A DNA stretch of 64,000 bases from Microbotryum violaceum (lineage: Eukaryota). Below the pieces are notes generated by a model. It searched no databases. It saw only the letters and a program-made list of their open reading frames with translations, and was not told the DNA's origin. A program made the translations under genes and the position numbers. Shown in pieces: positions 13,971 to 64,000 of this stretch; positions within the stretch are counted from its first letter, which is position 1, and each line of letters starts with the position of its first letter. Location of the stretch: contig CDLV01000005.1 in NCBI GenBank assembly GCA_001244265.2, positions 2,914,001 to 2,978,000 on the forward strand, in the 5' to 3' direction.

Positions 13971-16965
<2,995 letters not shown>

Positions 16966-17497: not shown

Positions 17498-17581
17498 CGA
17501 CCCTTGCCGGGATTGAACCGACGATATCCTCCTTGCAGCAAAAGCCGGAGGGAGGTGGGTTAACCACTTCCCCAAAGGGCC
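17498..17581 (-). tRNA. tRNA-Arg(CCG) with short intron
   Basis: GGCCCTT/AAGGGTC acceptor stem, D arm GGG-AAGTGGTTAA-CCC, CCTCC/GGAGG anticodon stem with CT-CCG-G plus ~11-nt intron, GTCGG-TTCAATC-CCGGC T arm, downstream T7 terminator. Confidence 0.85.
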
Positions 17582-17636
17582 TTAACTCCTCTGTGACCGA
17601 GGCGGCTTTATTAAAAGCCTTTTCTCGCTCCCTTGT

Positions 17637-17819
17637 GAGCAACCGCTTGGCTAGGGCATTTGAATCCGAATCTCGGATTGGTGGACTTGGCTCGTTTCTC
17701 GCACTTTTGCGGGCGGTTTGTGTTATCATCGTAGTCTTCCATCTAGTTTTTTTCCGTAGGCCAAAACAGGGGGAACAGGAACTGGGGGCAATATGATGAA
17801 CGTTTTCTACAAAAAAAAA
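17637..17819 (+). mobile_element. LINE family A 3' tail only (unit 1)
   Basis: Near-identical to 19991-20162, ends TTTTCTAC-A9. Confidence 0.9.
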
Positions 17820-18044
17820 GTCGTTCTTGGGACGTGAAGCGGCAGCAGTACTCACCGCCCGTTGGAGTCCGCGTTAGGTGCTCGGCGGGTTTTGATCTGC
17901 GCAGCGCTCTTTGCGCGCAGGGGTTTGACTTTCACCCAACTGCTTGCCGTCGTTGCTTTATAACCTCCTTTAGCCTTTTTGTAGCGGTCCCAGCCAACCC
18001 GAAGGATTGCAATTTATGAGCCCCAGTCAAAAAAAAAAAAAAAA
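17820..18044 (+). mobile_element. LINE family C 3' tail only (unit 2)
   Basis: Near-identical to 28359-28563, ends CCCCAGTC-A16. Confidence 0.9.
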
Positions 18045-20179
18045 TCGTTCGCTCGTCGTCAAGGCCGCAGGCGAGTCGCTCGAGTGGATCGGCCTCCCCT
18101 TCGACCCGAGCGGCGACACCGAACTCGCCTACGCGAATCTCATCGAACGCCTCGAGGCGACGCTGGAAGGGGTTCAGCATCGCTGGCTCACACACCACAC
18201 CCGTGCCTTTTACGTCAATCGGTACGCCATCCCCAAGATCCTGCACTTCCTTGCAGCCGACATCCCGCCGCCCGAAGTCGTCAAGAAGCTCGATGACATG
18301 CTCGTCGATTTCGTCCGTGGGGGCAAGGGCAGGACCAGCTACGGCAGAGATATCGTGTTCACAGCCAAGCTCAAGGGGGGACTCGGGGTGATCAGGATGC
18401 AGGACGTCGTGGACGCGGTTGCGGCACGGATCTGGGACGTTCTTCTCGGCGGTTCGGGCGCGATCTGGCAAGGACTTGCGCGCGTGGCACTCCAGCGAGC
18501 TCAGTCCGACCTCGACCTGGCCACCGATCTCTGGCCACATCCATCCACTCCCATCCCCAGCGACCTCCATCCCCGATGGCGAGCAGCATTGGGGGTTCCG
18601 AAACAGCAAGACGCGCAGGTCAACCCGAGGACCTTGACCACCGCGAACCTGCTCGCGCTTCCCACCTTGCTCGGCAGCCTCCACACCCCCATCAGAGGGA
18701 GACAGACCATCGACGCGGTTCATATACCTGACTACCTTCGTCTCCAGGGCTACCCGAAGGTGGCGGATCTCTACCGGCGCGAGTTGTATGCGGGTGGGGG
18801 GTTTCACCTTTGGACGCCGCCGGCGGATGTGCTCGGCGACAACAGCGAGTACGATCGACGCGGGCTCCCGCAGCGACTGGCAATCGCGGCCTGGTACCGG
18901 TTCACTGTCGATCGACACAAGAACACGCCCTTGGCGGTGGCGGTGGCGGCAGGACGGCTCAACGTGCCTCCCCGGATCGGCACCAGCGCACCGCAGCCGG
19001 ACGACCTCAGGAGCTTTTGGAAGGCGGTCAACTCGAAGGCACTGACGGCGAGGGAGAGGGAAGTTTGGTTCAAGCTGATTCTCCGCTTCACCCCGACGCG
19101 CAAGCTGCAACACCAACAGAATCACGACACTTCTCCCGCGTGCCTCGTCTGCGAGGCGCCGGTGGACGACACCGACCACTACTTTTTCGACTGCGTTGAC
19201 TCTGGGAACGTTTGGATCGCGGCAAGGAGCGTGCTCTGCGACGCACTGGGGCTCGACACGATCGACAACACGCATTACACGGCTGTTCAACGCATGTTCG
19301 GACTTCCGAAGCTCAAGGCCAGTCTACGCGATCAAGAAGGAGCGGGGAGGACGATCGAAATATTCACCGGGCTGGTCTTGGAGATGATCAGCAGCGGGAG
19401 GTGGGGGATGCAGAAGTGGGGACGAAGATGGAGGGTGTTGTGAGGAGGAGGATCATCTTGGAGGAGAGGTTGAAGCTGAGGGCGGGAGGAGCTTGGGGGA
19501 GGAGAGGGCAGTAGAGGCTGGGTTCGACTTTCCCCCCACCACCACCACACACACACACCAAATTCTCGTGACATCATTTTCTCCTACTGTACACTAAATA
19601 GATCGCTTTCATCTTTCATTTGTTACAGGTTCACCGTTGCGGATCATGGACCATCTCGCGATTTGGCGTCGACTCGGTGTGGCTCGCGCTCTTCGGCTTC
19701 GGGGTTCTGAGTCAAGGGAGGGATCAGCGGACACAGGCAGAAAGTCGGCTTTGAGGGGCCAGGGACTGCTGATGGGGGAGGTTTTGAGGGACCTTCACCG
19801 CGTCTTGTTGTGACTGAGCAGAGACTTGGAGCGTCGAGGGTCGTGGTGGTTGCGCAGTCGTGCTCTTGTCTTCGTCTCGACCGAGTGGGAAGTGGCTGTG
19901 GGGTGGGCCTTCTGTCGTTAGTACTTTTCTTTTCTTTCTCTTTTTTTTTCTCTTCATCTCTCTTTCTCTCTCTCATTAGTCTCCTGGGGGGAGCAACCGC
20001 TTGGCTAGGGCATTTGAATCCGAATCTCGGATTGGTGGACTTGGCTCGTTTCTCGCACTTTTGCGGGCGGTTTGTGTTATCATCGTAGTCTTCCATCTAG
20101 TTTTTCCGTAGGCCAAAACAGGGGGAACAGGAACTGGGGGCAATATGATGAACGTTTTCTACAAAAAAAAAAAAAAAAA
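18045..20179 (+). mobile_element. LINE family A, 5'-truncated (ORF2 C-terminus plus 3' UTR; unit 3)
   Basis: KGGLGVI thumb-region motif, CLVC..DDTDHYFFDC zinc motif; start matches 39430-39615; poly(A) tail. Confidence 0.9.
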
Positions 20180-20196
20180 TCTACAAAAAAAAAAAA

Positions 20197-23100
20197 GCGA
20201 ACACCCACGACGCTCTCTCCAAGCTTGTGAACGAGCGAGCAAGGCAGTCCCGGATCAGGGCGCACGTTCCCGAGATTGCATCCGAGGAACGTCTCAGTCG
20301 TCCGGTACATGCCAAACTGGCTGCTCGGTCCCGCGATGTGAAGTTTCAGAGTATCCGGCTCGCTGATGGCGAGCTCACCACTGACATGGAGCGCACGCTC
20401 GAGCACACCCATTCTCATTTCCAGCAGCACTACCTTGTCGAAGCGAAGGATCCGGAACAGGTCGTGACGATGCGGGATGAGCTCTTGGGACCCATCAGAT
20501 CAGCAAGACCTTGTGACGACCCGCTTTCCGACGCTCGCTTCCTTCGGCGCTTCTCGAATTCGCACGTCGACATTTTGGCCGAGCCCATCAGCGAGGCCGA
20601 GGTGCTCGCAGCGATTCGAACCACGCACGAAGGTCGATCTCCGGGTCCTTCAGGGGTCCCCTATGAGATGTATCGAGCCTGCCCCCTGCTTTGGGCCCCT
20701 CTCTTGACTCGAGCCTACAACGAGCTGATTACTCGAGGCTCCCTTACTCCACAACAGAGCCAGGCCAATGTGCGCCTCTTGTTCAAACACAACAAACCTG
20801 GTGCAGCGCGGTGCGACCTCAAATCGTATCGTCCGATCACCTTGCGGGAATGCGACTACAAGATCTTCACCAAGGTCTACGTGGCTCGTCTGAACCGGAT
20901 CCTCCCCGATGTTCTTCCGGCCGGACAGCATGGGTTCGTCAAGGGGCGAAGACCAGCGGACGCGGCTTTGCATCTGCGGCTCCTGATCGATGAGATTAGG
21001 GGTCGTGGGGCAGAGTTCCCGACAGCAGCGCTCCTCTCCCTGGATCAGAGCTCGGCTTACGACATGGTCGAGCACGATTGGTTCTTTGCGGTGTTTGAGG
21101 CTCTCGGCGCGCCGGAACCTTTCCAGCGCGTCTTGCGGATGCTCTACAACGGCGAGACGTCCACAGCGCGGTACATTGTCAACGGTTTCCTCACCGAGAC
21201 GGTGCGACTCCTGTGCGGTCTTGGCCAGGGCGATCCTCTCTCTTCTTCTGTCTGGGATGTGGTATTCCAACCCTTCCTTGATTCTCTCAGTCGACGCAAC
21301 ATTGCGCTGACTATCACTCTTCCGGAGCTGGCTCATCGTCCGCAGACTCGATGCATCACCAATTTGGCGTTCGCGGATGACGCCGTCGTCGCTGTTGCTG
21401 GGCCGGAAGCTATTGCTTCGCTCGAGGCGCTAGCTCGGGATTGGCGACTCGCGACAAACGGACGTCTAAACACCGACAAAACTGTGGTGATGCCATTGGG
21501 CGCGACGTTGTGGGATCGCGCGGACTTGTCCAAACTGTCGTTCGTGGCACCGGACGAGTCTCTTCCCTGGATCGGTCTCCAGTTTGCGCCTGACGGCAAC
21601 AACAGGCTGGGATTCCATGATCTTGAGCGAAGGGTTGATCGAGTGATTCTATCGGTGCGCGACCGATGGATGACGCACCATACCCGGGCTTTCTATCTTA
21701 ACCGCTACGGCATCTCCAAGGTGCTGCACTCTCTCTCCGCCGACATCCCGCCATCCGACGTGATCAAGTCGATCGAGCGCAAGCTTGCTGACTTTGTGAA
21801 GGGAGGCCCGCGGCGCAGCGACTACAAGCAATCGGTCGTCTTCACGGCACGGGCGCGAGGCGGTCTCAGCGTCGTGAGCATCCAGGATGTGGTGGATTCA
21901 GTCTCGGTACGGATCTGGGATGTGCTGGCCGGCGGGTCAACTGCGATTTGGGGCGATCTGGCTCGGAGTTCCATCCGGCGAGCGCTTCCGACCTTTGACT
22001 TTGCTGCGGATCTGTGGACGTGGAGGAACGCCGACGCACCCCGGGAGCTACATCCCGCTGGCGAGCGGTGCTCTCGGTCGCTGAACGCTACCCTGCCGTC
22101 GTCGATCCTGCCAAACTTTCGGTCTCCAATCTTCTTTCTCTTTCCCCCCTCCAACCGGGTCTGCATGACTCGCGGGCGTTCTCGGAGCAGGATAAGCGTT
22201 TGGCGAAGCATTTCAGTTTCGAACGCACCATCGCTGACATCTATGCTCGAGCTCAATACCCCGCAGCTCCAACGGTGCCCTGGACCCCTGAGAAGCATCC
22301 CCAAGGCGACGGCTCGGAGCTGTCCAACCTTTGGCAATGGAAGCGCGATCAAGTCCAGGCGTGGATCCAGGTCGCAGGCGATCGCTTCATCCCGCCGCTT
22401 CCGCCTCCTGTTCCCGTCCTCGCACGTCGACCACCCGTCATTCGTGTCGTTGGAGCACCTGGAGCCCGGGCCGGCGGTCCCCTCGAGCACATCTTGCCCA
22501 GAGCGACTCCGGTCGGCATGCCTGATCAAAGACTTCCCCTCCCCTCCGCCACCTTGCTTGCTAATCAGTGGAGAATGTTGAGCTTGGACAGACCCTACAC
22601 CATTGCGCGACTTCGACGCGTCATCAACCATCGACGTTTCGACGACACACAACGCCCTGGATCACTCGCCACACCCAAAGAAAGGCGACTCTTCTGGGGT
22701 GGTTCCACACCGGGCCCGCCACGGCCCGCGAGCGCGAGGTGCACTTCAAGCTGGCGTACCACTTCACGCCAACGCGGAAGCGCCAGTTTGTGCAGCGGCA
22801 TGACGACTCGGCCTGCTGCCTTGTGCAGGCATGCAGCCTGGCAGGGGTGGAGGATGACTTTACTCACTTTTGGCATGATTGCCCTGACTCTTCTCAGTTT
22901 TGGCAAGCAGCTAGGTCCATTATCTGCGACGCGCTGGGGGTCGTGTCGATCCTCGACCTCGACTACACGGCACTTCAGATCGAGCACGGCCTCCCTCGAC
23001 TGCGCGCTCGCCTTCCGACGTCGAAAAAGCGTCCAATCCGCGCCTTCATTGCGCTGGCGCTCGACACTCTCAGCAACCGACGCTGGGATCTCCATCGCCA

Positions 23101-24567
23101 CGCCAGAGCGATGTCGAGCATGGACAAGGAGATGGCGGGACTGAAGGAGAGGTTGGACCTCAGATTGGCGCGATGAAGTAGATGTCCCTCCCTCCCTATC
23201 CAAGCAAAAACCAAACCCCCAAAAAATCACAAGTCCCTTTTCCCTCCTTCTCAATCTCCAAAATGTCTCCCAAACACGCCAGAATACTGAACCTGTTTTC
23301 TCTCGCTCTTTTTGCCATTCCTCCTCATAGGCTTTCGTACTCCCCAGGAGCCTCGGGTTCTTTGCGCCGGCGGGCATTGTCGCCCTTGGTTCGAGCTTCT
23401 GCCACATCACGATGACACACAGCGAAAACGGATCCCCTTGGCCCTCTCCTGGACTATACCGTGAGTTTTCCACTCCTCTCAAGGGCCGGGTCTGTCTTCT
23501 CTTTCGGTCGAGCGACCCCGTGATCTCCTGTTCAAGGCCGGCACAAACTGCCTGCGTGGCTCGCCTCTCCTTGCTTTGCTGCTCGCTCGGAGTCGCGGCC
23601 GCGCGGCGGGTGACTCGGGTACCGAACCGCCATACACATCCACACTCGAGCGAGGTCCCACCCAATGACATCACCGTCGTGGGCCTCATGCTCCTTCTTT
23701 CCCCAGTATCTGCGGTGATTGGGAACCACCTGCACGTACAAGGGGACTCGAGTGTGCGTTCCGAGATTGGGAGTACGCCGCAGGGAAGCGAGGCCCCTGC
23801 GGAAGGTATACCCCGCCCTTGTCTCCAGCCGCGCGCCGGTGTTGACGGCCACCCGCCCGCGCTGCAGACCGAGGCGTGTCCAATGGACTGTCACATGCTC
23901 CGTGACTTTCCCCGGAAATCTCTGGATTGTGTGTCTTTGTGCGAAGTAGGCCTGTTTCGCAGTTGCAGTCATTGAAATGGGGGTGATCTGGGGTCGTGCG
24001 GTCGCGAGGGGGGCCGACTTTGGTAACCGAAAAGGGGTTTTGGAATCCGCGGTGGAGATCCAGCGCAGACGGGTACAAGGGGTATGTGATTGCTGCGGTC
24101 GCAGGGGGTTACATTCCCCCTTTGGACCACGTGAATCATTTGGATTGAGCGGGATGTTTGTGCCATCGGAGGCCTTGTTCGACGCGTCTCAAAGAATTAA
24201 GGGGCTTCAAGGAGTATGGCGGTCTCAGGGGGGGCTGAAGTCAAAAGATCGAAGAAGGTTCAACTGTACGACTATAATCGGATTCGCCTGTACAACACAT
24301 GTACCATCACCAACGACTCATCCATCTTTTCCCGATTCCTTGTGTATAATCTTCAACCTTCCTTTCATTCGTCTCTGGGAGGGAGCAACCGTGGGTGGGG
24401 GGGACTTGAACTCGGATGTATCGGGTTGGTCTGTTCTGCTAGTTACAACGCATCAAGCGGCGGTTGTGGTCATCATCGTGCATGCTGGGTAGCATCTCCT
24501 TTAGTTCCATAGGGGGTTTTCTCGTCTTGCAAATTAACGATGAGTTTCATACAAAAAAAAAAAAAAA
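20197..24567 (+). mobile_element. LINE family B, 5'-truncated, RT domain through long 3' UTR (unit 5)
   Basis: [52 protein letters not shown]-terminal C..C..HFWHDC; frameshifts near 22060 and 22700. Confidence 0.92.
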
Positions 24568-24989
24568 GTAGCTGGGGCTTGGCTGCGGCCTGTTAGTCCC
24601 TGGGGACCTCTACCTCCGGCTTCGACCCCCTCCCTTGGCCCCTCGGGTGTGTTCCCCTCCTCTCTGTCTTAGTATTCCTGGTTCTCCGTATCCCCAGTCG
24701 TGACTTTCTGTATACTCTCCCCCTTCTTTCTCTAGGCGCTCTTGCCTGGTTTTCGAGTATCTTTGCTCCCGCTCTTGGGACGTGAAGCGGCAGCAGTACT
24801 CACCGCCTGTTGGAGTCCGCGTTAGGGGCTCGGCGGGCTTTGATCTGCGCAGCGCTGTTTGCGCGCAGGGGTTTGACTTTCACCCAACTGCTTGCTGTCG
24901 TTGCTTTATAACCTCCTTTAGCTCTTTTTGTAGCGGTCCCAGCCAACCCGAAGGATTGCAATTTATGAGCCCCAGTCAAAAAAAAAAAA
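24568..24989 (+). mobile_element. LINE family C 3' UTR fragment (unit 6)
   Basis: Matches 28156-28563 plus poly(A). Confidence 0.9.
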
Positions 24990-26834
24990 TGCGAGGTGCA
25001 CTTCAAGCTGGCGTACCACTTCACGCCAACGCGGAAGCGCCAGTTTGTGCAGCGGCATGGCGACTCAGCCTGCTGCCTTGTGCAGGCATGCAGCCTGGCA
25101 GGGGTGGAGGATGACTTTACTCACTTTTGGCATGATTGCCCTGACTCTTCTCAGTTTTGGCAAGCAGCTAGGTCCATTCTCTGCGACGCGCTGGGGGTCG
25201 TGTCGATCCTCGACCTCGACTACACGGCACTTCAGATCGAGCACGGCCTCCCTCGACTGCGCGCTCGCCTTCCGGCTTCGAAAAAGCGCCCAACCCGCGC
25301 CTTCATTGCGCTGGCGCTTGACACTCTCAGCAACCGACGCTGGGATCTCCATCGCCACGCCAGAGCGATGTCGAGCATGGACAAGGAGATGGCCGGACTG
25401 AAGGAGAGGTTGGAGCTCAGACTGGCACGATGAAGTAGACGGCGCTCCCTCCCTACCCAAACCAAAACCAAAAAAAAAAAAAAAAAAAAATCAAAAAATC
25501 ACAAGTCCCCTTTCCCTCTTTCTCAATCTCTCCACTGTCTCCCAAAAACGCCAGCATACTGAACCTGTTTTCTCTCGCTCTTTTTGCCATTCCTCATCAT
25601 AGGCTTCCGTACTCCCCAGGAGCCTCGGGTTCTTTGCGCCGGCGAGCATCGTCGCCCTTGGTTCGAGCTTCTGCCCCATCACGATGACACACAGCGAAAG
25701 CGGATCCCCTCGGCCCTCTCCTGGACTACGCCGTGAGTTTTCCACTCCTCTCAAGGGCCGGGTCTGTTTTCTCTTTCGGTCGAGCGACTCCGTGATCTCC
25801 TGTTCAAGGCCGGCACAAACTGCCTGCGTGGCTCGCCTCTCCTTGCTTTGCTGCTCGCTCGGAGTCGCGGCCGCGCGGCGGGTGACTCGGGTACCGAACC
25901 GCCATACACATCCACACTCGAGCGAGGTCCCACCCAATGACATCACCGTCGTGGGCCTCATGCTCCTTCTTTCCCCAGTATCTGCGGTGATTGGGAACCA
26001 CCTGCACGTACAAGGGGACTCGAGTGTGCGTTCCGAGATTGGGAGTACGCCGCAGGGAAGCGAGGCCCCTGCGGAAGGTATACCCCGCCCTTGTCTCCAG
26101 CCGCGCGCCGGTGTTGACGGCCACCCGCCCGCGCTGCAGACCGAGGCGTGTCCAATGGACTGTCACATGCTCCGTGACTTTCCCCGGAAATCTCTGGATT
26201 GTGTGTTTTTGTGCGAAGTAGGCCTGTTTCGCAGTTGCAGTCATTGAAATGGGGGTGATCTGGGGTCGTGCGGTCGCGAGGGGGGCAGACTTTGGTAACC
26301 GAAAAGGGGGTTGGACTCCGCGGTGGAGATCCAGCGCAGACGGGTACAAGGGGTATGTGATTGCTGCGGTCGCAGGGGGTTACATTCCCCCTTTTGGACC
26401 ACGTGAATCATTCGGATTGAGCGGGATGTTTGTGCCATCGGAGGCCTTGTTCGACGCGTCTCAAAGAATTAAGGGCCTCAAGGAGTATGGCAGTCTCAGG
26501 GGGGTCTGAAGTCAAAAGATCGAAGAAGGTTCAACTGTACAACTATGATCGGATTCACCTGTACAACACATGTACCACCACCAACATTTCTTCCATCGTT
26601 TCCAGATTCCCCGTGTATTATCTTCAATCTTCCTTTCATTCGTCTCTGGGAGGGAGCAACCGTGGGTGGGGGGACTTGAACTCGGATGTATCGGGTTGGT
26701 CTGTTCTGCTAGTTACAACGCTTCGAGCGGCGGTTGTGGTCATCAACGTGCATACTGGGCAACATCACCTTTAGTTCCGTAGGGGGTTTCTCGTCTTGCA
26801 AATTAGCGATGAGTTTCATACAAAAAAAAAAAAA
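24990..26834 (+). mobile_element. LINE family B, 5'-truncated (unit 7)
   Basis: Highly similar to 22734-24567; poly(A) tail. Confidence 0.9.
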
Positions 26835-26997
26835 TGTGCTCGGCGGGTTTTGATCTGCGCAGCGCTCTTTGCGCGCAGGGGTTTCACTTTCACCCAACTG
26901 CTTGCCGTCGTTGCTTTATAACCTCCTTTAGCTCTTTTTGTAGCGGTCCCAGCCAACCCGAAGGATTGCAATTTATGAGCCCCAGTCAAAAAAAAAA
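26835..26997 (+). mobile_element. LINE family C 3' tail (unit 8)
   Basis: Matches 28412-28563 plus poly(A). Confidence 0.9.
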
Positions 26998-28575
26998 GTG
27001 TTATTTCGGTTCCCAGGGAGGGAGGATCGTGTCAAGCGTTTCCGTGATGGGACTTCTCAGAGCGATAGGAAGCGCTTCTGGAGATGGCTTCATGACCGGT
27101 TTGCGTCTGCTGTGGAGCAGGACACCCACTGGCGGCTCATGTACGACGTGACGCCGACGCGCAAGAGGCAGCATACTCAGGGTCATGCCTCTTCGCCGAC
27201 GTGTCTGTTCTGCGGCAACGATGCAGCGGTCATCGAGACGGTGTCGCACTACTTCTTCGAGTGCGCGTACTCGACCAGCTTCTGGGGTGGGGTGCTTCGC
27301 ATTCTGTTCGACAAGCTGGGCATCGAGGATACCGACGTCGATCCGTCGACGTTCACTCCGGAGCAGCTGACTATGGGGCTCCCCTTTTGCGGGGTCGTGG
27401 GAGAACGACCTCGAGATGGATGTGGGTTCGGCTGGCCTGCGCGATCGGCTTCCAGCGGCTGCACCTGCTCCGCTGGCGCGTTCATCAGCGGTTCGAGCTG
27501 GACAAGGTCGTGGCCCCTCCCTCGCTCCCCAGTGCACTCAGAGCGTTCGAGCGAGATTTTCTCTCTCGAGCGGGTTTTGTTCCTGGGGCTCGAGATTGGG
27601 AGGTGTGATGACCGAGTTAAGTCCTTCCTTCCCATTTTCCTCCCTCCTTTCCTCCCTTCTTTTTCGGAGGTCGACTTCTCTTTCAGAAGCTGACTGTCTT
27701 GAAACTTGTTGCGCAGTGGAAGGCTGCGCACCTCTCCCTCTCTCTCTCTCTCTCTACTTTGCGCAGTAGCGGTTTTCGTTCTTGGATGGATCGGCAAGCC
27801 AGTACGATCGTCTTTGCGTTGGAGGCTTTGTGAAGTTTTTCCCTCTCCTTTCCCCCCCTTTTTCCCTTCCCTTCCTCTTCTCGTTCCTGTTGCTCGGTTG
27901 TTGACTACGCTTCAGCCACTTCTCCTTTACTCCTAAGCCGTGTGTTGGATTCCGTTGAATGGTTCGTTCGTTCGCGTTGGTCAAGATCTACGGCATGGCT
28001 CGGGAAGGAAGGTCGCTCGTTTCTGGTCAATATCCTCCCGTCAACGCGAGGCTCGTTTCGTTGTACTGGATCGCTTTTCTCTCGGCCCCGACGGCTCAAC
28101 AGCCAGCACTCGAGATTCAGCCAAGGGAGGACATCAGGCGCTGTCGGGGTGACGAGTAGCTGGGGCTTGGCTGCGGCCTGTTAGTCCCTGGGGACCTCTA
28201 CCTCCGGCTTCGACCCCTACCTTGGCCCCTCGGGTGTGTTCCCCTCCTCTCTGTCTTAGTATTCCTAGTCCTCCGTATCCCAGTCGTGACTTTCTGTATA
28301 CTCTCCCCCTTCTTTCTCTAGGCGCTCTTGCCTGGTTTTCGAGTATCTTCGCTCCCGCTCTTGGGACGTGAAGCGGCAGCAGTACTCACCGCCCGTTGGA
28401 GTCCGCGTTAGGTGCTCGGCGGGTTTTGATCTGCGCAGCGCTCTTTGCGCGCAGGGGTTTGACTTTCACCCAACTGCTTGCCGTCGTTGCTTTATAACCT
28501 CCTTTAGCTCTTTTTGTAGCGGTCCCAGCCAACCCGAAGGATTGCAATTTATGAGCCCCAGTCAAAAAAAAAAAA
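26998..28575 (+). mobile_element. LINE family C, ORF2 C-terminus plus ~1-kb 3' UTR (unit 9)
   Basis: TPTRKRQH..CLFC..IETVSHYFFEC zinc motif; poly(A) tail. Confidence 0.88.
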
Positions 28576-28592
28576 TCTACAAAAAAATAAAA

Positions 28593-28987
28593 ATTGCTGA
28601 GGTGGAGGTTTTGAGGGGCCTCCACCGCGTCTTGCTGTGACCGAGCATAGACTTGGGGCTTCGTGGGTCAGGGTAGTTGCGCAGTCGATCTCCTGTCTTT
28701 GTCTCGACCGAGTTGGGAAGTGACGGCAGGTTGGGCCTCTTGTCGTTAGTCAATTGTTTTATTACTCTTTCTCTTTCTCTCTCTCTCATTCGTCTCCTGG
28801 GGGGAGCAACCGCTTGGCTGGGGCACTTGAATCCCAAGTATCGGATTGGTGGACACCGGCCCGTTTCTCGCATCTTGCGGGCGGTTTGTGTTATCATCGT
28901 CGACTTCCATCTAGTTTTTTCCGTAGGCCAAATAGGGGGAACATGAATTGGGGGCAATATGATGAACGGTTTCTACAAAAAAAAAAA
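28593..28987 (+). mobile_element. diverged LINE family A 3' UTR (unit 11)
   Basis: Homologous to, but clearly diverged from, 19770-20162; ends TTTCTAC-A11. Confidence 0.85.
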
Positions 28988-29871
28988 TGGGAGCCATGGC
29001 AGGCGGACTGGTGCACGGTCACATTGACTTCTACTGTCCCCTTCAATTGATTAAACAACTGAAGCCAACCAACTTAATCAATTGTTCAACTCGTGACCGA
29101 TCTTAGTTTGCCTTGCGGCAGTGACAGACGCTACCAAATCAGAGACTGACGAGCGTGTAATCCAACCGTGGAGAGAAGACAACGGTTGGTGCGCATCGCC
29201 AGGCTTCACTAAACAAACGCGCGCTTCTAATCAAATAACCGATAGCCGCCTTCCTGCTAATCCTCAGTCACAACACGCCAACTGTACGTACATCTAGCAA
29301 TACGGCTACTATCATATGCAATTAACTGACGGTTGGACGATGGCTCAACTGGTTCCTTGGGCGAGAGTTCCACCCGTGGTCCGAGCAATGGCATGTCATG
29401 CGACATGGTGAGCAGTTATCCTGCAAGTCTTTATGCTTTTCCTAGATCGTGTTCACCAGGATTTTGGTTCTGATAGATCACACACACGTATGGTGGGCAG
29501 CCGCTCAAAAATCCAAGACAAAGCCGACGACAGCACGAGAACGGTGATCACATTCTCACGGACTGGTTCAATTTGGATGCCAATCACGATCAAGGAACGT
29601 TCCCGACTCCCCGAGCATGATTGGGTCGTGACTTTGGTGTCGCTTCGTGTTTTCTCTCTTCAACTCGCTACTCTACCCAGATGTCTTTACCCTTCAAGGC
29701 TCACCACCTCAAACTAATTGAGTGCACCGTCACTCTCCTTGATATATCAGTCGCGACATGGTTTCCTTGCAGTTGCATAGTCACTCCTTACAGTCCTATA
29801 TACTCTCGCTTCGCTTAGAAATGTGATACATTCAACAAGGTGCACGATGTAGAGATACGCAAGAGCATCGA

Positions 29872-35988: not shown

Positions 35989-38900
35989 CGCCGAGCGATC
36001 GCATCACAGAATCGCTTTGCCGGGCTCGAGGTTGAGGGACAGGAGGAAGCGGTAACTGGTCAGAGCGGACAGGGGCCGGAGGAATCGGGGGAGGAGGATG
36101 CTGGTGATAAGGCGGATGACGAGGACTCGGAGGACTCGGAGATGGAATCGGAGATGGAATCGGAGATGGAATCGGAGATGGATTCGGAGGCGACCGCGAA
36201 AACGGAGGTCATCAAGACTGAAAGCGAGGACGAGTCGGTTTTAGAGGACCGCAGAGGATCCGATGGAGAGGTGACTAGTGAGGATGAGGTGATGGCGGAT
36301 GGAAGGGGCGAAACAGAAGGCAAGGTGGCGACGGAGATGGAGGAGGAGGAGGTGGCGACGGAGGTGGACAATGTGGACGAGGCAGGGGGAGCGACAAAAG
36401 CGGAGAACGCGGAAGCGACGGACTTAGGGGAGACGAACAGGCTGGACAATGACGACGACAGCGACGCAACAGCAACCGCCGCCACCGCTTCCCGCGAATC
36501 GACACCCCACGAACCAACCCCACCTTTGTCACCCGAAACTCTTGCCAAGTCGCTTCGCGAGGGGGAGGAGTGGGACAGGATCAGAGCTAACTGGGTTGAG
36601 CAGGCACGACTCGAGCGGGACCAAAGCATCGAGAGGAGGCTCAACGCTGAAACCCCTTTGGTGCGTCACAACTTTGCCACGTGGGATGAGGACGGTGAGA
36701 TACGTTCCATCAATATCAGGGGGACCGCTTCGAAGTTCAAAAAGCCGGTAATGAAGAGGTCGCAGACTGCGGCGGACCTCAGTGACCCGAGTGACGAACC
36801 GACCGACGCCAAGCGAGTGATCATCAAAGGGAAGAGCCGCGTCGTTGTCAAGGATGGAACAGAGGGGCGGAGGGTGACGAGGTCGATGTCAGCGGCGGCG
36901 GCGATGCCGGTTGGCGTGACGAGAGTGGACCGAGGGAAAGCAAAGTGGGTAGCCGAGGAGAAAAGATGGTCCGACCACGAGCCCGAGGACGATGTCCTGC
37001 CCGCCCTTCCCCTCTTTGAGGACGTCACCACCGCCAAGAGCGCTTCGACCTCAACTACCCATTAATGGTTAAGCACACCATCATCACCTGGAACGTGAGG
37101 AGGGGCATGGGGGTCCCGGAGAAACGACGTGACATTTACAACTACCTATCCCTTTTCAAAGCATCGGCCATTCTCATACAAGAGCACTTCATCAGACCGC
37201 ACCTCTGGCAACTCATCAAGGACGAGTACGAGGGCAAGCTCTTCATCAACCAACATTGTCTGACTCTAATTCCGGCTGACTCCCCCCTGATCGACGCCGA
37301 GCTCTTGCGCACCCACTCGGCACTCGACCGACGGCCGGCTCCTCGTCACGTCCTTTCGACTGCGGGGCGACATCAAAATTCTAGAAATCAACAACGTTTA
37401 CGCGCCCGTTGACCCAAAGCAACGAGCGAAATTCTTTGACAAACTTTTATTTCACAAAACACAGAAATCCCACCTCCGACTCCTTGGCGGTGATCTCAAC
37501 GACTGCCCGCGCCCAGAAGTCGATCGGCGGAACCAAAGTCGGCGCGGCCACCACTGGCCAATCCTGATCGGCAAGCTCGACTCGGCCTACACGGACTGCA
37601 TCCGCTACAAACACCCCATCACCCCATCCTTCACTCGACCTAATCCCAATCGCAAGCGACCCAACTCCTTCTCCCGGCTTGACTACTTTCTCCTGCAACG
37701 GACACACCAAAAAAGACTCGATCAGGCCTCGACGATCTACGACTATCCCAAGGAGCTTTCCGATCACCGACCGGTCTCGATTGTGCTGGCTCTCTCAGAC
37801 AATCCTGATGCGACCCTCCCACAGCTCAGCCTACCTACCACATCAAACCAACTACATCGAATCAACACCACAACCTTTAAGACGGTGGAATTCCAGCGGA
37901 TGATGGAAGGATGGTTGGAAGGGGCAAGCGGGGAGGAACCGGTGGGGAAGCTCGAGGTCATTCTGAAGGCGTGCAGGGATAGGGGTGGGGAGATGGCGAG
38001 GAGGCTGCATCGGGAGCGGACGGAACGGATGGAGTATTTGGTGGGGAGGGTGCAGGATCTGGAGGCGATACCGGAATGGGGGGAGGCGGAAACGGCAGAA
38101 TGGACAAGGACGTCCGAGGAACTCAAGCGGGCGGTCAAGGAGCGCGCGTGCCTACTCCGGATCCGAGCCCACGTACCCGAGATCGCCTCCGAGGAACGAC
38201 TGTCGCGGCCGGTCCACGCCAAGCTCGCGGTGCGGAACTCGGACTCCAAGATCACAGCACTGCGCTTGAGCAACGGAGAGCTAACGCATGACATTGATGT
38301 CGCTCTTGACCACACGCAGGCGCATTTCCAGCGCCTCTACCGCATCGAGCCTCGTGACCCGGACCGCGTCGACCGACTTCGGGACAAATTCCTCGCGCCG
38401 ATCAGGGCGGCGCGGACTTGCGACGACCCGCGCTCGGATCCTCTCTTTCTGCGCCGACTCTCGGAATCGCAGATCGACTTACTCCAGCGACCAATCACCG
38501 AGGACGAGGTCGTGGCCGCGATCGGGACGACGCACCCGGGGCGATCGCCGGGACCGTCGGGCGTGCCCTACGAACTCTACCAGACCGCACCCAAGGCATG
38601 GGCCAAGGTGCTGACCAAGGCCTACAACGCGATGATAGAGCGAGGCTCACTCTCTCCCAAGCAGGGCCAAGGACTCGTGCGCCTCATCTTCAAGCGACAC
38701 AAGAAGAATGCTGATCGCGCCGAACTTTCGGCGTACCGGCCGATCACCCTGCGCGAGTGCGATTACAAGATCTTTACCAAGGTCTATGTCGCCCGTTTGA
38801 ACCAGATTCTACCCGATCTCCTCCCGCCGCAGCAGCACGGATTCGTCAAGGACCGCCGATCGGCTGACGCTGCACTACACCTTCGTCTCCTGATCGAGGA

Positions 38901-41310: not shown

Positions 41311-42605
41311 ACGTGCTGCCCTCCCCCCTTCCCCCCTCAAAACATATAGACAGACTCTCAAGTGAGAGTAAACATTTGCCATCACTCTCCATCTGCGGGG
41401 GCCGTGTGGTCTGTATTGGCCATGTAGGGCCAGATTGTTATCCTTACGAATCCTTCACATCGAAATTGCGAACTTGTGCCCTCGAGCTCGTTCGGAAATG
41501 TTAAATTCGGTCGAATTCTCGCTGGCATTGCCGGCGCGCTGGCGGGTGCAAGTGCAGCGCCAAGATCGACTTCATACAGCTATATTCCGTAGCGTTCAGT
41601 AGACGAAGTACCTGATTGGAGAGCGTTTCCATAGGGGCCCATCGAGGGGCCAAGAATGTTACGCGGAACACCGCTCGGTTCTGGTACGGAAGCTGCGTGC
41701 CCGGAGCGGGTCTCATCCGGAACTGCTTCGGACGCGAGGCTGGGATAAGATTGTGCCGACAATCTAAAAATTGCGACAAGTTTTGTTACGATGTAAAATG
41801 TAGAATTTTGGCTTGTGAAGGCGCATGCGCGGTGTTCAGGGGTAAGCTCCGGCTTCTCGCTAGATGTCCGACGTGAAATCGCCGGTTCATCGAAACGGGT
41901 CAACGATTCAGTGTGCGATGCCGACCAATATCGTGGGGATAGGAGCAGCTGCGATCGGGGGGTTTTTTTGTCGAAAAGGGTGACTTAGCTCAACCTAAGG
42001 AGCGAACTTTCTGCGCTGGTCGACCATCGCCACCAGTCTATATCGCACCGTATATACGTTCCTCCTTTGCGTCATCATCAAAGTCGATCGTTCCCTTAGA
42101 ACCACAGGCGGAGGCTCGGCGCGAGTCACTTTACACCAAAATCGCGCGGCGGTGTCGCAATGTCGCGTGCCTAGAGTGCGCCAGCTGCAACGCCGCTGTC
42201 GAGCTCTACTCCATCCACCGCATCCACCCCATCAACGAAAGCCGACTCGCTTTGAGGCGCGTGCTGGTCGCCGCACCCAGAGCCTACGTCCACCTCTGCG
42301 ACCACTTTTCAACAAAAGACACCTGTCGACGCGCTCGCCTTTGCTGCTGGTCGGACGCTGCTGGCGGTGCTGACTGTGAGCCACCCGTCGAGCCGACCGG
42401 ACGCTCGAGCGGCAGGCTGCCAGACGCTGCCTGCCTGCCGGCCTGCCGTACGGCCCGGTCGGCGCGCGCCTCTGAAAGCCTCTGATCAGCGCTCGATCAG
42501 TACTCAGTACTCAGCGAGCACCACCAACCACCGACCCGTAACTCGAGCAGGAACCCGAGCAGGCCTTTCAGCTGCACCGGATCGCCGGCCGGCCTCGACC
42601 CCGAC

Positions 42606-60247: not shown

Positions 60248-60319
60248 CGGCTGGACCAGGAGTCGAACCTAGGTCGCTTCCATTAATCGGAAAAGCTTTG
60301 ACCACTAAGCTATCCGGCC
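60248..60319 (-). tRNA. tRNA-like gene with non-canonical anticodon loop (GA-TTA-AT); pseudo-tRNA or suppressor-like
   Basis: GGCCGGA/TCCAGCC acceptor (one mismatch), TAGCTTAGTGGTCAAAGC D arm/A box, TTTCC/GGAAG stem, CTAGG-TTCGACT-CCTGG T arm/B box, downstream TTTT. Confidence 0.75.
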
Positions 60320-60394
60320 CCTGATATCAGTGCAAGGTCTACTAACACCTTCAACTCGACTGACAGGTTTCGGCACGCAGCCCCGACCTCCAAT

Positions 60395-61735
60395 GTGATC
60401 CGAGTCATTATGGATGGTCCTGGATCACCCAGAGGTCCTGTACAGATCGCGCTTCGCAAGCACTTTGGATTGGCCGAGACCCCGTTCATGTTCGCGCGGC
60501 CCGAGGGCGTCGTGCTTGACCCCGAGGTTGAGAAGCTTTTCTCGAAATGCGTGAAGCTGAACCCGGTTGTGACAAAAGCCACGAAGAGGTTCCCGATCGC
60601 TCGTCACATGTACGAGCTTGTATTCGAATCCGACCAAGCCTGTCTCGAAGCCGCTGCAGCGGGCCCATTCTCTCACCACGGCAAGGAGATGGTTACCGAG
60701 CTCCCCAGCGCCTCTCCCCTTAACCACGTCGTTCAGGTGCGATTCACGTTGCCCTCCTCCTCCAGCGCCACCCCCGCTTCCGTGCTCCGACAATCTCTCG
60801 ATGATGCTCTCACCCTTTCGTTCGGCCGCGCAGGTCGTACGCAAGGTTATACCCTGATGCAATTACAGCGGGGCCTCGCGGTCGATCCGAATGGAGATCC
60901 GATGGCCATGACCGAAGACGGGTTCCACTGCGCGTACCTTCGCTTACATGCTGATCTTTTCCAAGGCTCTACCGAGACGCAGAAGGCTGCGCTCAACGCC
61001 GCCTTGCCACAAGAGATCGAGATCCTGGGCGCCAAGTACGGCTTGCGACACGAATTCGAGACGCACTACTGCGCCGTGTGCGATCGCGCCGGACACCAGT
61101 GGGGCGCTTGCAGGAAGCCGGTTTCGACTCCGGCCACCGCCGCCCCTGTTCCGGGGGCCTCGACTTCGACTTCGACCACGGGCTTCCGAGTTGCTGGGAA
61201 GAATGGGAAGCACGGTGGGCCTGCCGCATTGAACTCTCGTGCCTCTGGCACGAACATGATCCAGCTGGGACCTCGTGCTAACCCTGCAGGTGCAGCGACC
61301 GGCAACAAGGACGATGCGAACGACGACGACGGCGACGACGACGACGACGGCGGCGGCGAATCGGTCGCTTCGACCGAACCGGAGGGCGGCGACACTGGGA
61401 AAGAGACGTTGACCCGTGCGACCACGGGCCCAACAAAGGAGACGCAGACGACGACAGCGGCGCCCGTTTCGACCCCGACCTCTCCTTCGCCTTCTGCTTC
61501 TGCTCCGGCATCGCCTTTGTCCGGTGGCACGTCGGAATCATCGGCAACCTCGACGACCTCGATAGCCTCGACGAGTCCTCGACGCCTTCGTTCGAGCTCG
61601 GCACCCGGCAACCGACGTGTCACCCGGGCGGGATCCGCCATGATCCTCGGTGCATCAGGGGGTGACGGCTCAGGGGGTCACAGGTCCGAGATGACCGAAT
61701 TCGAGGGGGGCGGCGCTGATCCAATTTATTCATGA
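60395..61735 (+). CDS. LINE ORF1 (gag-like, CCHC zinc knuckle), probably 5'-truncated
   Basis: CAVCDRAGHQWGAC knuckle, low-complexity C-terminus; stop overlaps ORF2 start (ATGA). Confidence 0.8.
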   Translation: MIRVIMDGPGSPRGPVQIALRKHFGLAETPFMFARPEGVVLDPEVEKLFSKCVKLNPVVTKATKRFPIARHMYELVFESDQACLEAAAAGPFSHHGKEMVTELPSASPLNHVVQVRFTLPSSSSATPASVLRQSLDDALTLSFGRAGRTQGYTLMQLQRGLAVDPNGDPMAMTEDGFHCAYLRLHADLFQGSTETQKAALNAALPQEIEILGAKYGLRHEFETHYCAVCDRAGHQWGACRKPVSTPATAAPVPGASTSTSTTGFRVAGKNGKHGGPAALNSRASGTNMIQLGPRANPAGAATGNKDDANDDDGDDDDDGGGESVASTEPEGGDTGKETLTRATTGPTKETQTTTAAPVSTPTSPSPSASAPASPLSGGTSESSATSTTSIASTSPRRLRSSSAPGNRRVTRAGSAMILGASGGDGSGGHRSEMTEFEGGGADPIYS

Positions 61736-64000
61736 TTGAGTCCCTCACCGTGTTAACGTTCAACGTCCGATCGATCAAGAACGCAGTCAACCAAGTTAAA
61801 ATCATCCGCTATCTCAAAACCCTTCGGCCGGCCCCTGCGGCCATTCTCCTGCAAGAGCACCACCTCAGCTACAACGCGTCGCGCGAAGGCTTCGAGAGTG
61901 CTTGGCCAGGGGCTTGTATTCGTTTCACTCCTCATGTCCTTACCCTCATACCCGATGGCTCACCTTTGGCGGGCCATCTCCTTTCCTCTACCCCGGTCGT
62001 CTTTGCAGGAGCTCCTCGTCTCGACGGTCGGATTCTGCGCTCGGTGTTTCGTCTTGAGGAGCTCGATGTTGAGATCATCAACATGTACGCGCCGGTACAG
62101 GAGGACGATCGTCGCGACTTTTTCGGGCTCCTGCATTTCAACGCCCCGAGACCCAAGACTCTTCGGATCTTGGCCGGCGATCTCAATGATTGTCCGGATG
62201 TATCGGTCGACCGAGTGTCCATCACCGATCGCGCTTGGACTCCTGTATCGCACTGGCAGACCTTGCTGTCAAAGATCGCGTTCAAGGCACTCGACACGGT
62301 CCGACATGTCCATTCTTGCACCCCGCATTCACTCGTCCTCACTACCGTGGTAGAGGGGAGGAGCGAAAGATTTGCTCGTGGTCGCGGATCGACTATATTC
62401 TTGTCCAATGCAGTTGGGCAAACCGGTTGTTGAGCGCTTCTACGCTCTTCGACGCGCCCTGTTCGGACCACAGACCTGTAGTTGCGACTTTCGCATTGCC
62501 TACGTCGAACGCTGATGCCGAACCCCCCTTTCTCTTCCCTCTACGAGCGATTTCATTTCGAGGCTCAACCCAACGGTCTTTGACGATCAAGACTTTGTCG
62601 CATCGATTCCCGGGGTCATCGACGAGGTCTATCGAAGGCTCGAGGGGACCGCTCCGCTCGGCGACGTCTATGACGCCGCTCTGCGGGCGGTTGCAGTCGC
62701 TGGCCATGCACGATACCGCTCGACTCGTGCCGACATGCGCCGACTGCGGGCCGAAAGCCAATCCGTCATGGAGGCTTTGGAGGCACGCGGTGAGCACATG
62801 AATGAGGCCGAGCGCGATGCGTATGCTTTTGCCAAGTCGCGGTTGGACCAGTTGGCGGTAAAGGAGGCTCAGTGGCTGCGCATTCGTGCGCGTGTGCCGT
62901 CAGTCGACTCGAGGGAAGGTCAATCGGCAAGCATTCGCACGCGTCTCAACCGCCGGAGTCGCCAGACGAGCATCGTCTCGCTGGAGGATGTGGATGGCAC
63001 CGAGACCGTTGACATGCAGGAGGCGCTGGGCATTGCTTCACGGCACGCACAGTCGCTCTTCACGCCGGACCCAGCTCGTGGCGACCCGACGAACCCACGT
63101 CGGTCCCTGCTCGACCCTATTCGCGCGGCGAAATGCTACGATGACGACCGCTCGGACCCTACGTTCGGTCGTCGGCTGCCTCGTCAAGCGAGAGTGGCGC
63201 TTGACGAGCCCTTCACCCTCCTCGAGGTTGAAGCGGCGTTGAAGAAGACGGATTCGGGGCGATCACCGGGGCCCTCGGGCATTCCGTACGAGCTCTTCAA
63301 GGCGCTGCCAACCTACTTTGCTCCCAAGCTGTTGGATTTGTTCAACTCGATTTGGGAGGGGGGTAAAATGACGGCGTCCTTGGCAGAGGGGCTGGTGCGG
63401 CTTTTGCCCAAGAACAAACCGGGGGCCAATCTGAAATCACTGGGGGCATATCGACCGATCACACTGCGCGAGACGACCTACAAGGTCCTCAGCAAGGTCT
63501 TGGTGGCGCGACTCAATGGGGTGCTCGGCGAGCTTTTGCCGCCGGCGCAACACGGGTTCATGCCATCAAGACGTTCAGCAGACGCGGGAAGTCATCTCAC
63601 TCTCCTTCTCGAAAAACTCAAGTCGCTAGGCACTGAAGTTTTTCCCGAGGGCGCCCTCTTGTCCTTGGATCAGCAGAGCGCGTACGATCGGGTCGATCAC
63701 GCATGGATCTTTGACGTCTTCGAGGCCTTTGGCTTTGGTGAGCGTTTCATTTCCCTGCTGCGCGCTCTGTACGATCCCGAGACTCTGGGGGTGCGCTACC
63801 TCATCAATGGGTTCCCCACGGAGTTGGTGCGGTTGCTGTGTGGTCTCGGTCAGGGGGATCCCCTCTCGTGCCCGGTTTGGAACATCACGTTCCAGCCCTT
63901 CCTCGACGCCCTCGTTCGGCGCGGGATCGCGCTCGACCTGCAGAAGGTGTGGCCAGGGGGGCCGCGTGCGCAGCTTACGCATCTGGCGTTTGCCGACGAT
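61732..64000 (+). mobile_element. LINE ORF2 (APE endonuclease + RT), frameshifted, runs off the window
   Basis: TFNVRS, LQEH, NMYAP, AGDLND, SRIDYI, SDHRPV, SPGPSG, YRPITL, GLGQGDPLS, LAFADD at window end. Confidence 0.9.

Follow-up and report, generated by a model that had tools for sequence, protein, structure and literature searches.

LINE copies lying about 55 bp upstream of two tRNA genes in a Microbotryum genome: possible Pol III-guided integration resembling that of the Dictyostelium TRE5 elements

Among published elements, LINEs whose integration is position-specific but sequence-independent are known only from dictyostelid amoebae, and a 2018 review tabulates TRE5, TRE3, NLTR-A and NLTR-B alone (PMC5911963). 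TRE5-A has its 5' end facing the 5' end of a tRNA gene at a distance of 47+/-3 bp (PMC5391098), and the non-LTR element NLTR-B of the dictyostelid Polysphondylium pallidum lies 39-64 bp upstream of tRNA genes (PMC5911963). In Dictyostelium, tRNA targeting depends on contact between ORF1p and TFIIIB (PMC5911963). Ty3, Ty1 and other fungal LTR elements also find their sites through the Pol III machinery (PMC5911963), but these elements insert by means of an integrase, a chemistry with no relation to target-primed reverse transcription, and their positions differ from those of the LINEs described here, with Ty3 at the transcription start and Ty1 up to ~1 kb upstream. Human LINE-1 shares with the present elements an APE endonuclease, poly(A) tails and 5' truncation, and is their nearest relative with a solved ORF2, but it has no preference for Pol III genes and its ORF1 is of another kind (Transposase_22, unmatched here).

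The window analysed (the whole 64-kb stretch), from an anther-smut fungus, contains three LINE loci, all on the (+) strand and with Exo_endo_phos, RVT_1 and zf-RVT domains (Pfam); LINE protein homology in the whole window is confined to positions 17768-28987, 35992-41317 and 60377-64000. The reading that we favour, with a probability of roughly 0.6 and from two loci, is that these LINEs integrate under the guidance of the Pol III complex, in a TRE5-like manner that evolved independently in a basidiomycete. [quoted passage not shown] The position would be read from the Pol III pre-initiation complex, at the upstream edge of the DNA bound by TFIIIB/TFIIIC, and not from the DNA sequence, by a logic like that of TRE5 but arrived at independently. 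Head-to-tail arrays of 5'-truncated copies beside the tRNA gene would then result from target-primed reverse transcription at one spot, either repeated or from several templates.

Table 1. Small-RNA genes, spacers and LINE copies in the window
Feature	Positions	Strand	Evidence
tRNA gene, 11-nt intron	17498..17581	(-)	ARAGORN -i; Rfam tRNA 47.2 bits; B-box scan
Spacer, 55 bp, tRNA-Arg 5' end to LINE	17582..17636		sequence
Unit 1, 182-bp family X 3' tail, poly(A) end	17637..17818	(+)	self-BLAST
Unit 2, family Z 3' tail (...CCCCAGTC + A16)	17822..18045	(+)	self-BLAST
Unit 3, 5'-truncated family X: ORF2 C-terminus with zf-RVT, 3' UTR, poly(A)	18046..20180	(+)	Pfam, homology
Mini-copy, 17 bp, X tail end (TCTAC + A12)	20181..20197	(+)	sequence
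Unit 4, 5'-truncated family Y, RT onward	20198..24567	(+)	Pfam, homology
Unit 5, family Z tail, 423 bp	24568..24990	(+)	self-BLAST
Unit 6, 5'-truncated family Y	24991..26834	(+)	self-BLAST
Unit 7, family Z tail, 162 bp	26836..26997	(+)	self-BLAST
Unit 8, 5'-truncated family Z: zf-RVT, 3' UTR, poly(A)	26998..28576	(+)	Pfam, homology
Second mini-copy, X tail end	28577..28594	(+)	sequence
Unit 10, family X tail	28595..28987	(+)	self-BLAST
Locus 2, family X copy	35997..41317	(+)	homology, self-BLAST, Pfam; loose end in run X6
tRNA-like gene	60248..60319	(-)	ARAGORN; Rfam 46.5 bits
Spacer, 54-57 bp, tRNA-like gene to LINE	60320..60376		homology start + sequence
Locus 3, family Z copy	60377..64000	(+)	Pfam, homology to gene models

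ARAGORN and Rfam find two tRNA genes in the window, both on the (-) strand, which differ from each other in sequence and are intact as neighbours of the LINEs. ARAGORN reads the first as Gly-CCC with the intron at 35/36. The canonical position of introns in eukaryotic tRNAs is 37/38, and with the 11-nt intron placed there instead the loop becomes CU-CCG-G, intron, A, so that the gene is tRNA-Arg(CCG) if the canonical position applies. Its B box is GGTTCAATCCC (B-box scan), and a T7 run starts 5 nt past its 3' end. The second gene has an intact A box (TAGCTTAGTGG) and B box (GGTTCGACTCC) and a T4 run downstream, together with an aberrant anticodon loop (GAUUAAU, with A33 in place of U33 and the 'anticodon' UUA) and a C4-A69 mismatch in the cloverleaf. 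A functional nuclear tRNA would be expected to form a cloverleaf with a sense anticodon and U33, which this gene does not encode, and it is perhaps a pseudogene. A Helitron fragment lies close to it. B boxes and downstream T runs can be read in both genes, a consensus A box only in the tRNA-like gene. In TRE5-type targeting a functional B box is required.

The first base of the LINE array at 17637 and the 5' end of tRNA-Arg at 17581 are separated by exactly 55 bp (self-BLAST and sequence), with the junction at 17636/17637, and at the tRNA-like gene the first LINE base at 60374-60377 follows the 5' end at 60319 after 54-57 bp. The first-pass annotation had already reported a 55-bp distance to a tRNA-Arg and a tRNA-like gene ending at 60319, and on these points the sequence, ARAGORN and Rfam bear it out (with Arg(CCG) at the canonical intron). 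It had also placed ORF1 sequence within ~75 bp of the second gene, where it was right about a close junction but not about its length or content: the family ORF1 is missing its first 106 codons in this copy, which does not begin at the ORF1 start, and the homology of the copy to 13 of the 18 matching gene models opens at window residue 25-27 (nt 60374-60380), which therefore sets the shorter spacer. In both divergent pairs the LINE lies to the right of the tRNA gene and its 5' end faces that of the tRNA, so that both tRNA genes in the window have a LINE at the kind of distance seen for TRE5 (a narrow range, ~40-55 bp upstream) and in the same strict orientation.

The spacers bear no relation to each other (equally good alignments come from 278 of 500 shuffles; that of tRNA-Arg carries TTTATTAAAAG at -26..-36), and the insertion points share no motif and have no A-run. 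The copies that abut the spacers belong to different families, X at tRNA-Arg and Z at the tRNA-like gene, and are 5'-truncated at differing internal points, and it is therefore the target, not the element's end, that sets the ~55-bp distance. A search across the window for the absent 5' part of the family Z copy did not find it, which argues that the tRNA gene did not insert into a LINE. No target-site duplication longer than 3 bp is visible at 17636 / 28988 or between array units; the sole candidate, TGTGAGCAA / TGGGAGCCA, matches at 7 of 9 positions and overlaps element sequence.

X, Y and Z are three related, Microbotryum-specific, L1-like LINE families with an N-terminal ORF1-like part bearing a CCHC knuckle, an APE endonuclease, an RT and a C-terminal zinc finger. 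The APE and RT domains (Exo_endo_phos, RVT_1) stand in this order in the window ORFs and in the full-length gene models P0005, P0066 and P0059, and the gene models hold the ORF1-like and ORF2 parts in one frame. In the PDB, ORF2 matches human L1 ORF2p best (E 1e-22, RT region), and of the label 'L1/Tx1-like' given earlier we keep only APE-type and L1-like. Among 97 matches in a search for relatives, the 67 strong ones include no named organism beyond Microbotryum-like, and the matches from outside Microbotryum reach at most 33% identity, with none from Dictyostelium. Searches with the ORF2 alignment confirmed none of 184 pattern matches in JGI metagenomes and none of 49 in GTDB genomes, and an exact 24-nt family Z tail had no match in metagenomes.

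The array beside tRNA-Arg consists of 11 truncated copies from the three families, joined head to tail. All 11 units end in an A-run and start at varied internal points, the hallmarks of target-primed reverse transcription, and each internal junction passes from poly(A) directly to a truncated 5' end with no duplication. The tail in unit 1 differs from that of unit 3 by no mismatch and one gap over 182 bp, over 619 residues unit 4 is 99.8% identical to gene model P0042 at the amino acid level, unit 6 matches the 3' part of unit 4 at 95% identity, and unit 10 is the most diverged X tail (84-90% to the others). The tRNA-proximal unit 1 thus looks young and the distal unit 10 old, an order contrary to what founder-first insertion into poly(A) tails predicts, and from which we infer that the array grows at its tRNA-proximal end. 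We regard it as slightly better than an even bet that several Microbotryum LINE families take the transcription complex of tRNA genes as a ruler and insert repeatedly at -55 in one orientation, and that tRNA genes carry growing stacks of truncated LINEs, with the youngest copy adjacent to the gene, in a system of independent origin. The right boundary of the array is at 28987/28988, and sequencing runs X5 and X11 have loose ends at 28988; before this point the loose end resembles an X tail in which CACACAT takes the place of poly(A), a resemblance too short for an orthology call.

A second allele of the tRNA-proximal junction is present in public sequencing data. A contig of run X1 at single-copy depth (41.8) covers 16500-17634 with 2 differences and joins the flank at 17634-17637 to LINE position 19846-19849, whereas the window joins to the equivalent of 19991; the flank breakpoint is the same (within 3 bp) and the element breakpoint is different. 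The reuse of the flank breakpoint fits recurrent integration at one spot, and could also represent a deletion that by chance ended at the junction. The flank contig of run X11 matches as far as 17636 and then has 68 letters without a placement; it is ambiguous because 17637-17819 also fits 19991-20171. A joint 20117>28839 of uncertain genomic place occurs at single-copy depth in runs X1 and X6; it was left out of the evidence, as were stretches without cover, among them 35843-36499, where run X11 has low depth.

Arrays of this anatomy might also arise from ordinary L1-type integration without Pol III guidance, through nicking at T-rich sites, especially within the poly(A) tails of earlier copies, and survival in harmless spots such as the upstream regions of tRNA genes. 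All the internal array junctions are of the form that this predicts, and such junctions of poly(A) with truncated copies are also to be expected from template jumping by the RT. Head-to-tail concatenations occur in 14 of the 67 listed Microbotryum-like gene models, so that LINE arrays are common, and locus 2 lies away from any tRNA. We consider this explanation improbable, since it leaves without a cause two independent first junctions of nearly the same distance and like orientation, at insertion points that have no A-run, as well as the young proximal and old distal units and the identical flank breakpoint of the X1 allele.

An explanation about equally unlikely in our estimation shares all of the geometric evidence with Pol III guidance and dispenses only with the tether: the endonuclease would cut DNA that is accessible or bent where the nucleosome-free, TFIIIB-bound region upstream of active tRNA genes ends, and no element protein would bind Pol III factors. 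The ORF1 parts, which have no match in Pfam (Transposase_22 included) and no recognisable targeting domain, and for which an AlphaFold model is poor (mean pLDDT 45), are compatible with it. The strict orientation and the spread of 2-3 bp are probably tighter than accessibility usually yields, and the Dictyostelium pattern depends on the ORF1p-TFIIIB contact (PMC5911963). That the Pol III complex serves as the ruler, and that an element protein reads it, is what we infer from the position; a contact of these LINEs with TFIIIB might be supposed purely by analogy.

Locus 2, a family X copy, lacks ~405 N-terminal codons and its poly(A) and is frameshifted, and its 3' end is rearranged by an inverted duplication (40535-40818 vs 41185-40914). 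The neighbourhood of this copy has no detectable Pol III gene (Rfam at E<=10 over 35000-36300, 0 matches). The first-pass annotation had counted it as a third LINE, ~265 bp from a structured RNA at 35723. Neither Rfam nor ARAGORN nor folding upholds that RNA (its fold z-score is +0.58, and 141 of 200 shuffles fold equally well), and the 82 calls of low-threshold ARAGORN over the window, with kilobase 'introns', are noise. Its picture of three (+) LINEs, each facing a (-) small-RNA gene, accordingly survives in the three LINEs and at two of the three genes; its proposal of Pol III-guided, sequence-independent targeting agrees with the position, orientation and unrelated flanks at the same two loci and does not fit locus 2, because no Pol III gene can be detected there. 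At locus 3 the remainder of ORF1 with its CCHC knuckle extends to 61735, the endonuclease occupies 61720-62433 and the RT 62516-64000; there are at least 2 frameshifts, and the window end cuts the copy.

That the two junctions are unrelated accidents or local rearrangements in a transposon-rich region is very unlikely. The Helitron fragment and the rearranged locus 2 point in that direction, and the finding was chosen post hoc out of many windows. The chance that 3 random sites would hit both tRNA genes in divergent geometry at -45..-65 is ~1.6e-7, and even with a loose criterion (<=200 bp, either strand) it is ~2.3e-4, both values being post hoc. The M. lychnidis-dioicae assembly is also poor in tRNA genes and LINEs (134 tRNAs, LINE cover 0.93%; PMC4469406). 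Sequence-specific targeting by recognition of a DNA motif that the upstream regions of these tRNA genes contain by chance has a precedent in certain APE-type LINE clades that are sequence-specific for small-RNA genes, but is scarcely credible here, where the spacers and insertion points have no common motif, the tRNA genes are intact and mutually different, and there is no sign of the single defined target, usually inside a small-RNA gene or repeat, of Tx1-type or R-element insertion.

The proposed integration guided by the Pol III complex has its closest parallel in TRE5-A/B/C, tRNA-gene-targeted L1-clade elements of Dictyostelium discoideum, which resemble the Microbotryum LINEs in a distance of ~50 bp (PMC5391098), independence from flank sequence, 5'-truncated copies with additional nucleotides at 5' junctions, and an APE, RT and zinc finger layout (PMC5391098, PMC5911963). 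The Microbotryum LINEs differ in their basidiomycete host, in the single frame of their gene models and in their long mixed-family head-to-tail arrays; TRE5-A reportedly makes target-site duplications, whereas none are visible here. The range of NLTR-B includes 55 bp (PMC5911963), but this amoebozoan element has a single ORF and is likened here by position, not by sequence.

Our search of the literature (supplementary TE-tRNA distance tables lay outside its scope) turned up no fungal precedent for LINEs upstream of tRNA genes in this geometry, in keeping with the earlier remark that no description from basidiomycetes was known, and the divergent ~55-bp arrangement is apparently new for fungi. 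If the reading is true, it would be the first non-LTR case outside the dictyostelid amoebae and would show that non-LTR elements have evolved the 'safe-haven' solution at least twice. Such a case would also offer a second, genetically tractable system for how a host complex aims a target-primed reverse transcriptase, and for comparing how TFIIIB/TFIIIC might position an APE endonuclease and RT. Beyond this, work on targeted insertion has a general interest in proteins that steer reverse-transcribed DNA to harmless genomic sites. The same reading would account for the mixed head-to-tail arrays of Microbotryum LINEs. The arrays matter for annotation too: among Microbotryum 'proteins', many with lengths of 1,400-3,500 residues are gene models that read through such arrays.

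The N-terminal flank peptides of 16 other copies, a weak test, include none that is convincingly tRNA-like. B-box-like motifs appeared only in copia-derived peptides, and we rejected the reading of tRNA genes from flank peptides either way; ad hoc back-translations of the flanks of P0063, P0054 and P0055 were likewise unconvincing. In 5 gene models, LINE pieces adjoin copia or gypsy pieces.

LINE protein homology is confined to three places on the + strand (17.8-29.0, 35.99-41.3 and 60.38-64.0 kb), as the first-pass annotation had it, apart from a short inverted LINE piece at the second of them. At two different tRNA genes, members of two LINE families, truncated at two different points, abut the gene in equal orientation and at distances that agree within about 2 bp. 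[quoted passage not shown] At locus 3 a full-length ORF1 had been assumed, but the ORF1 of family Z begins with MPDPPG..., 106 codons upstream of where this copy starts matching. Of the 18 gene models covering the locus 3 start, 13 begin to match at window residue 25-27 and extend upstream of it with conserved LINE sequence. By sensitive tblastn the LINE starts at 60374-60377, and the 5' part of ORF1 that it lacks occurs nowhere else in the window. The copy at locus 3 is therefore truncated at its 5' end as well, with a junction 54-57 bp from the 5' end of the tRNA-like gene (60319). The two spacers between tRNA 5' end and LINE show no relationship (an equally good alignment arises in 278 of 500 shuffles), in agreement with the first description of the flanks. 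The tRNA-LINE geometry is real at two of the three loci and far beyond chance (P ~1.6e-7 that three random sites hit both tRNAs in the divergent geometry at -45 to -65). The LINEs share the window, of 64 kb and 55.7% G+C, with ordinary fungal genes.

Features of the window, with the pieces of the locus 1 array in order (X, Y and Z are three related L1-like LINE families)
Feature	Position	Strand	Remarks
PLA2_B lysophospholipase, paralogue 1	5351-7376	-	80-86% DNA identity to paralogue 2, ~9 kb apart
PLA2_B lysophospholipase, paralogue 2	14131-16393	-	
tRNA-Arg	17498-17581	-	
Locus 1, LINE array	17637-28987	+	11 pieces
Array piece 1			X tail, 182 bp
Array piece 2			Z tail, 224 bp
Array piece 3			X, 2.1 kb
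Array piece 4			X tail end, 17 bp
Array piece 5			Y, 4.4 kb
Array piece 6			Z tail, 423 bp
Array piece 7			Y, 1.8 kb
Array piece 8			Z tail, 162 bp
Array piece 9			Z, 1.6 kb
Array piece 10			X tail end, 18 bp
Array piece 11			X tail, 393 bp
HRQ1 helicase gene	~29.7-35.1 kb	-	
Locus 2, LINE	35997-41317	+	
IRE1 kinase/RNase gene	42.5-46.5 kb		
FAD oxidoreductase gene			
ADAM-like metalloprotease gene			
Helitron_like_N fragment	58516-59106	-	E 5.9e-07; ~1.1 kb past the 3' side of the tRNA-like gene
tRNA-like gene	60248-60319	-	
Locus 3, LINE	60377-64000	+	

The tRNA-like gene is the sole tRNA detected by default ARAGORN and at the Rfam gathering score (46.5 bits), and the gene at 17498-17581 appears once ARAGORN allows introns, with 47.2 bits in Rfam under permissive filters; beyond these genes no sequence in the window passes any Rfam threshold. 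ARAGORN labels the latter gene Gly-CCC and puts an 11-nt intron at 35/36. Introns of eukaryotic nuclear tRNAs lie at position 37/38, and with this canonical placement, which gives CU-CCG-G, the gene reads as tRNA-Arg(CCG), in keeping with the Arg identity originally proposed for it. The tRNA-like gene has a textbook A box and B box and a T-run downstream. Its anticodon loop reads GAUUAAU, with A33 and a "UUA" anticodon, where U33 is universal in tRNAs, and there is one acceptor-stem mismatch. The most apt description is a tRNA-like gene, possibly a pseudogene, that is still competent as a Pol III promoter; it represents a tRNA gene in decay or an unusual one of suppressor-like type.

In position and orientation the Microbotryum elements resemble TRE5, the tRNA-targeted non-LTR elements of Dictyostelium. 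For TRE5-A, a distance within 47+/-3 bp is reported for 59% of 98 copies in the genome and for 85% of 34 de novo insertions, and the 5' junctions often carry extra nucleotides (PMC5391098). Target-site duplications are reported for TRE5-A, whereas none is seen in the Microbotryum elements, and no Dictyostelium protein occurs among the 97 matches to the locus 2 ORF2; these are among our reasons for not filing the elements in the TRE clade. The tRNA-targeting non-LTR elements in the table of a 2018 review are only dictyostelid (TRE5 at 40-54 bp, TRE3, NLTR-A, NLTR-B at 39-64 bp), and its text ascribes TRE5 targeting to ORF1p-TFIIIB contact together with B-box dependence (PMC5911963). We consider a TRE5-like reading the best explanation of the window, with a probability of roughly 60%, and by analogy a Pol III tether may itself direct these LINEs. 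We reject sequence specificity in the style of Tx1, given the unrelated flanks and the intact tRNA genes. The first-pass annotation knew of no basidiomycete precedent, and our check of the full-text literature, with subscription journals and Repbase reports outside its scope, turned up no description of tRNA-gene targeting by a non-LTR element in fungi; the absence of such a precedent is not proven. The Microbotryum genome paper gives tRNAs only as counts (PMC4469406), and the word "tRNA" has 0 occurrences in the main text of a 2023 paper on Microbotryum TEs.

Part of the HRQ1-side flank is present in 20 of 21 public sequencing runs (7 studies, three organism labels), and the contigs of four runs (X1, X6, X5 and X11) were compared with the window over 16500-36499. 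Contigs of the LINE parts have 10-100 times the word depth of the flank in all four, which fits multi-copy families, although summed depth does not equal copy number. One X1 contig (record 1), of single-copy depth (41.8), matches 16500-17634 with 2 differences and ends in 30 letters of LINE sequence from 19846, of which 3 letters fit either side. In the X1 strain, the element that abuts the tRNA-Arg spacer has its first base ~143 bp closer to the 5' end of family X than its counterpart in the window, yet the flank breakpoints coincide within 3 bp. The X1 allele can be read as a separate or further integration at that spot; a deletion, one end of which would fall exactly at the junction, is less likely.

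Self-BLAST and direct reading resolve the locus 1 array into head-to-tail pieces, every one of which terminates in an A-run, with the truncated 5' end of the next piece directly after it and a few extra bases at four junctions (GTCGTT, TCGTTCG, T and T). Duplications are absent between pieces, and around the whole array none exceeds 3 bp; the right boundary of the array (28987/28988) is confirmed by loose ends in runs X5 and X11. These junctions are compatible with three mechanisms of growth: repeated integration at a fixed -55 by blunt or near-blunt cleavage, newcomers entering between the spacer and older copies; a single event with serial template jumps of the RT; and integration into the poly(A) of earlier copies, with the founder leftmost. 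Over 182 bp the proximal X tail shows 0 mismatches against the X tail of piece 3, whereas the distal X tail has no more than 84-90% identity to either, which favours repeated integration at -55 or template jumps over insertion into poly(A). The proximal end is also the part of the array that differs in run X1, and the positions of the extra bases are those expected of non-templated additions at 5' junctions or of additions during template jumps; the order and mechanism of growth are inferred. By our own reading, 14 of 67 Microbotryum-like gene models are head-to-tail concatenations (e.g. X>Z, Z>X). The published M. lychnidis-dioicae assembly is given as having only 134 tRNAs and a LINE coverage of 0.93% (PMC4469406). 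If hundreds of copies are in competition for about 140 tRNA targets, frequent arrays would be a natural outcome, but poly(A) insertion would produce them too. To the right of the array, a joint of opposite strands at 29146/29284 is present in all four runs and suggests a small inverted-repeat structure or an inversion polymorphism in the region downstream of HRQ1.

The pairing proposed for locus 2, with a structured RNA at 35723, is not supported: around this position Rfam gives nothing even at E<=10, ARAGORN makes no credible call, and the folding is not unusual (z +0.58). Family X homology begins at 35992-35998, and a multi-copy contig of run X6 departs from the window just before 35997, carrying upstream codons of family X. 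The locus is a rearranged old copy that lacks ~405 N-terminal codons, is frameshifted and has a scrambled end without poly(A), in which the zinc-finger region is partly duplicated in inverted orientation (40535-40818 vs 41185-40914, 78% identity) and a G17 run occupies 40623-40639. The locus stands as an exception, or it has been rearranged too far to be judged. Its junction is spanned by contigs from X1 and from X6, and the insertion is therefore shared within organism label A. Run X5 has 33 other letters in place of 69 bp of the acidic SEMESEM repeat in the ORF1-like region (36153-36223), a repeat length variation among family copies or species.

For the locus 2 ORF2 there are 67 strong relatives (identity roughly 40-97%), every source-named one of them from a Microbotryum species, and the next matches reach <=33%; the window therefore derives from an anther-smut fungus (Microbotryum, Pucciniomycotina), and the families are Microbotryum-specific in the database searched. 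They were defined against full-length gene models (X, P0005, 2,082 aa; Y, P0042, 1,949 aa; Z, P0066, 1,797 aa), and each has an ORF1-like N-terminal part, which comprises a CCHC knuckle and a long linker of acidic or disordered character, followed by an APE-type endonuclease, RT and a C-terminal zf-RVT finger. The closest solved structure is human L1 ORF2p (E 1e-22), with R2 behind it (5e-16). Full-length models such as P0005 and P0066 carry the ORF1-like part and ORF2 in one continuous frame and the window copies in different frames; the native elements may have just one ORF, or the models may splice across a frameshift. In two other models, P0055 and P0060, 45 residues upstream of the ORF1 start match 27990-28156 (62-73% aa), inside the 3' UTR of family Z, and the homology stops within ~6 bp of the start of a 423-bp tail unit found within 28155-28576 and also alone at 24568-24990. 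Either the 5' and 3' UTRs of family Z share a module, or this point is a hotspot of truncation and nested insertion; TRE5-A is described as sharing its B-module between both UTRs (PMC5911963). Three further models, none of them in the window (P0023, P0047 and P0048), share one end peptide of copia origin (...WLWTWGARVSY), joined in each to a piece of family X; the truncation points of the three pieces are X333, X1245 and X1250. With the same copia end and three truncation points, LINE copies therefore recur beside that end, and LINEs and copia elements perhaps use the same landing sites.
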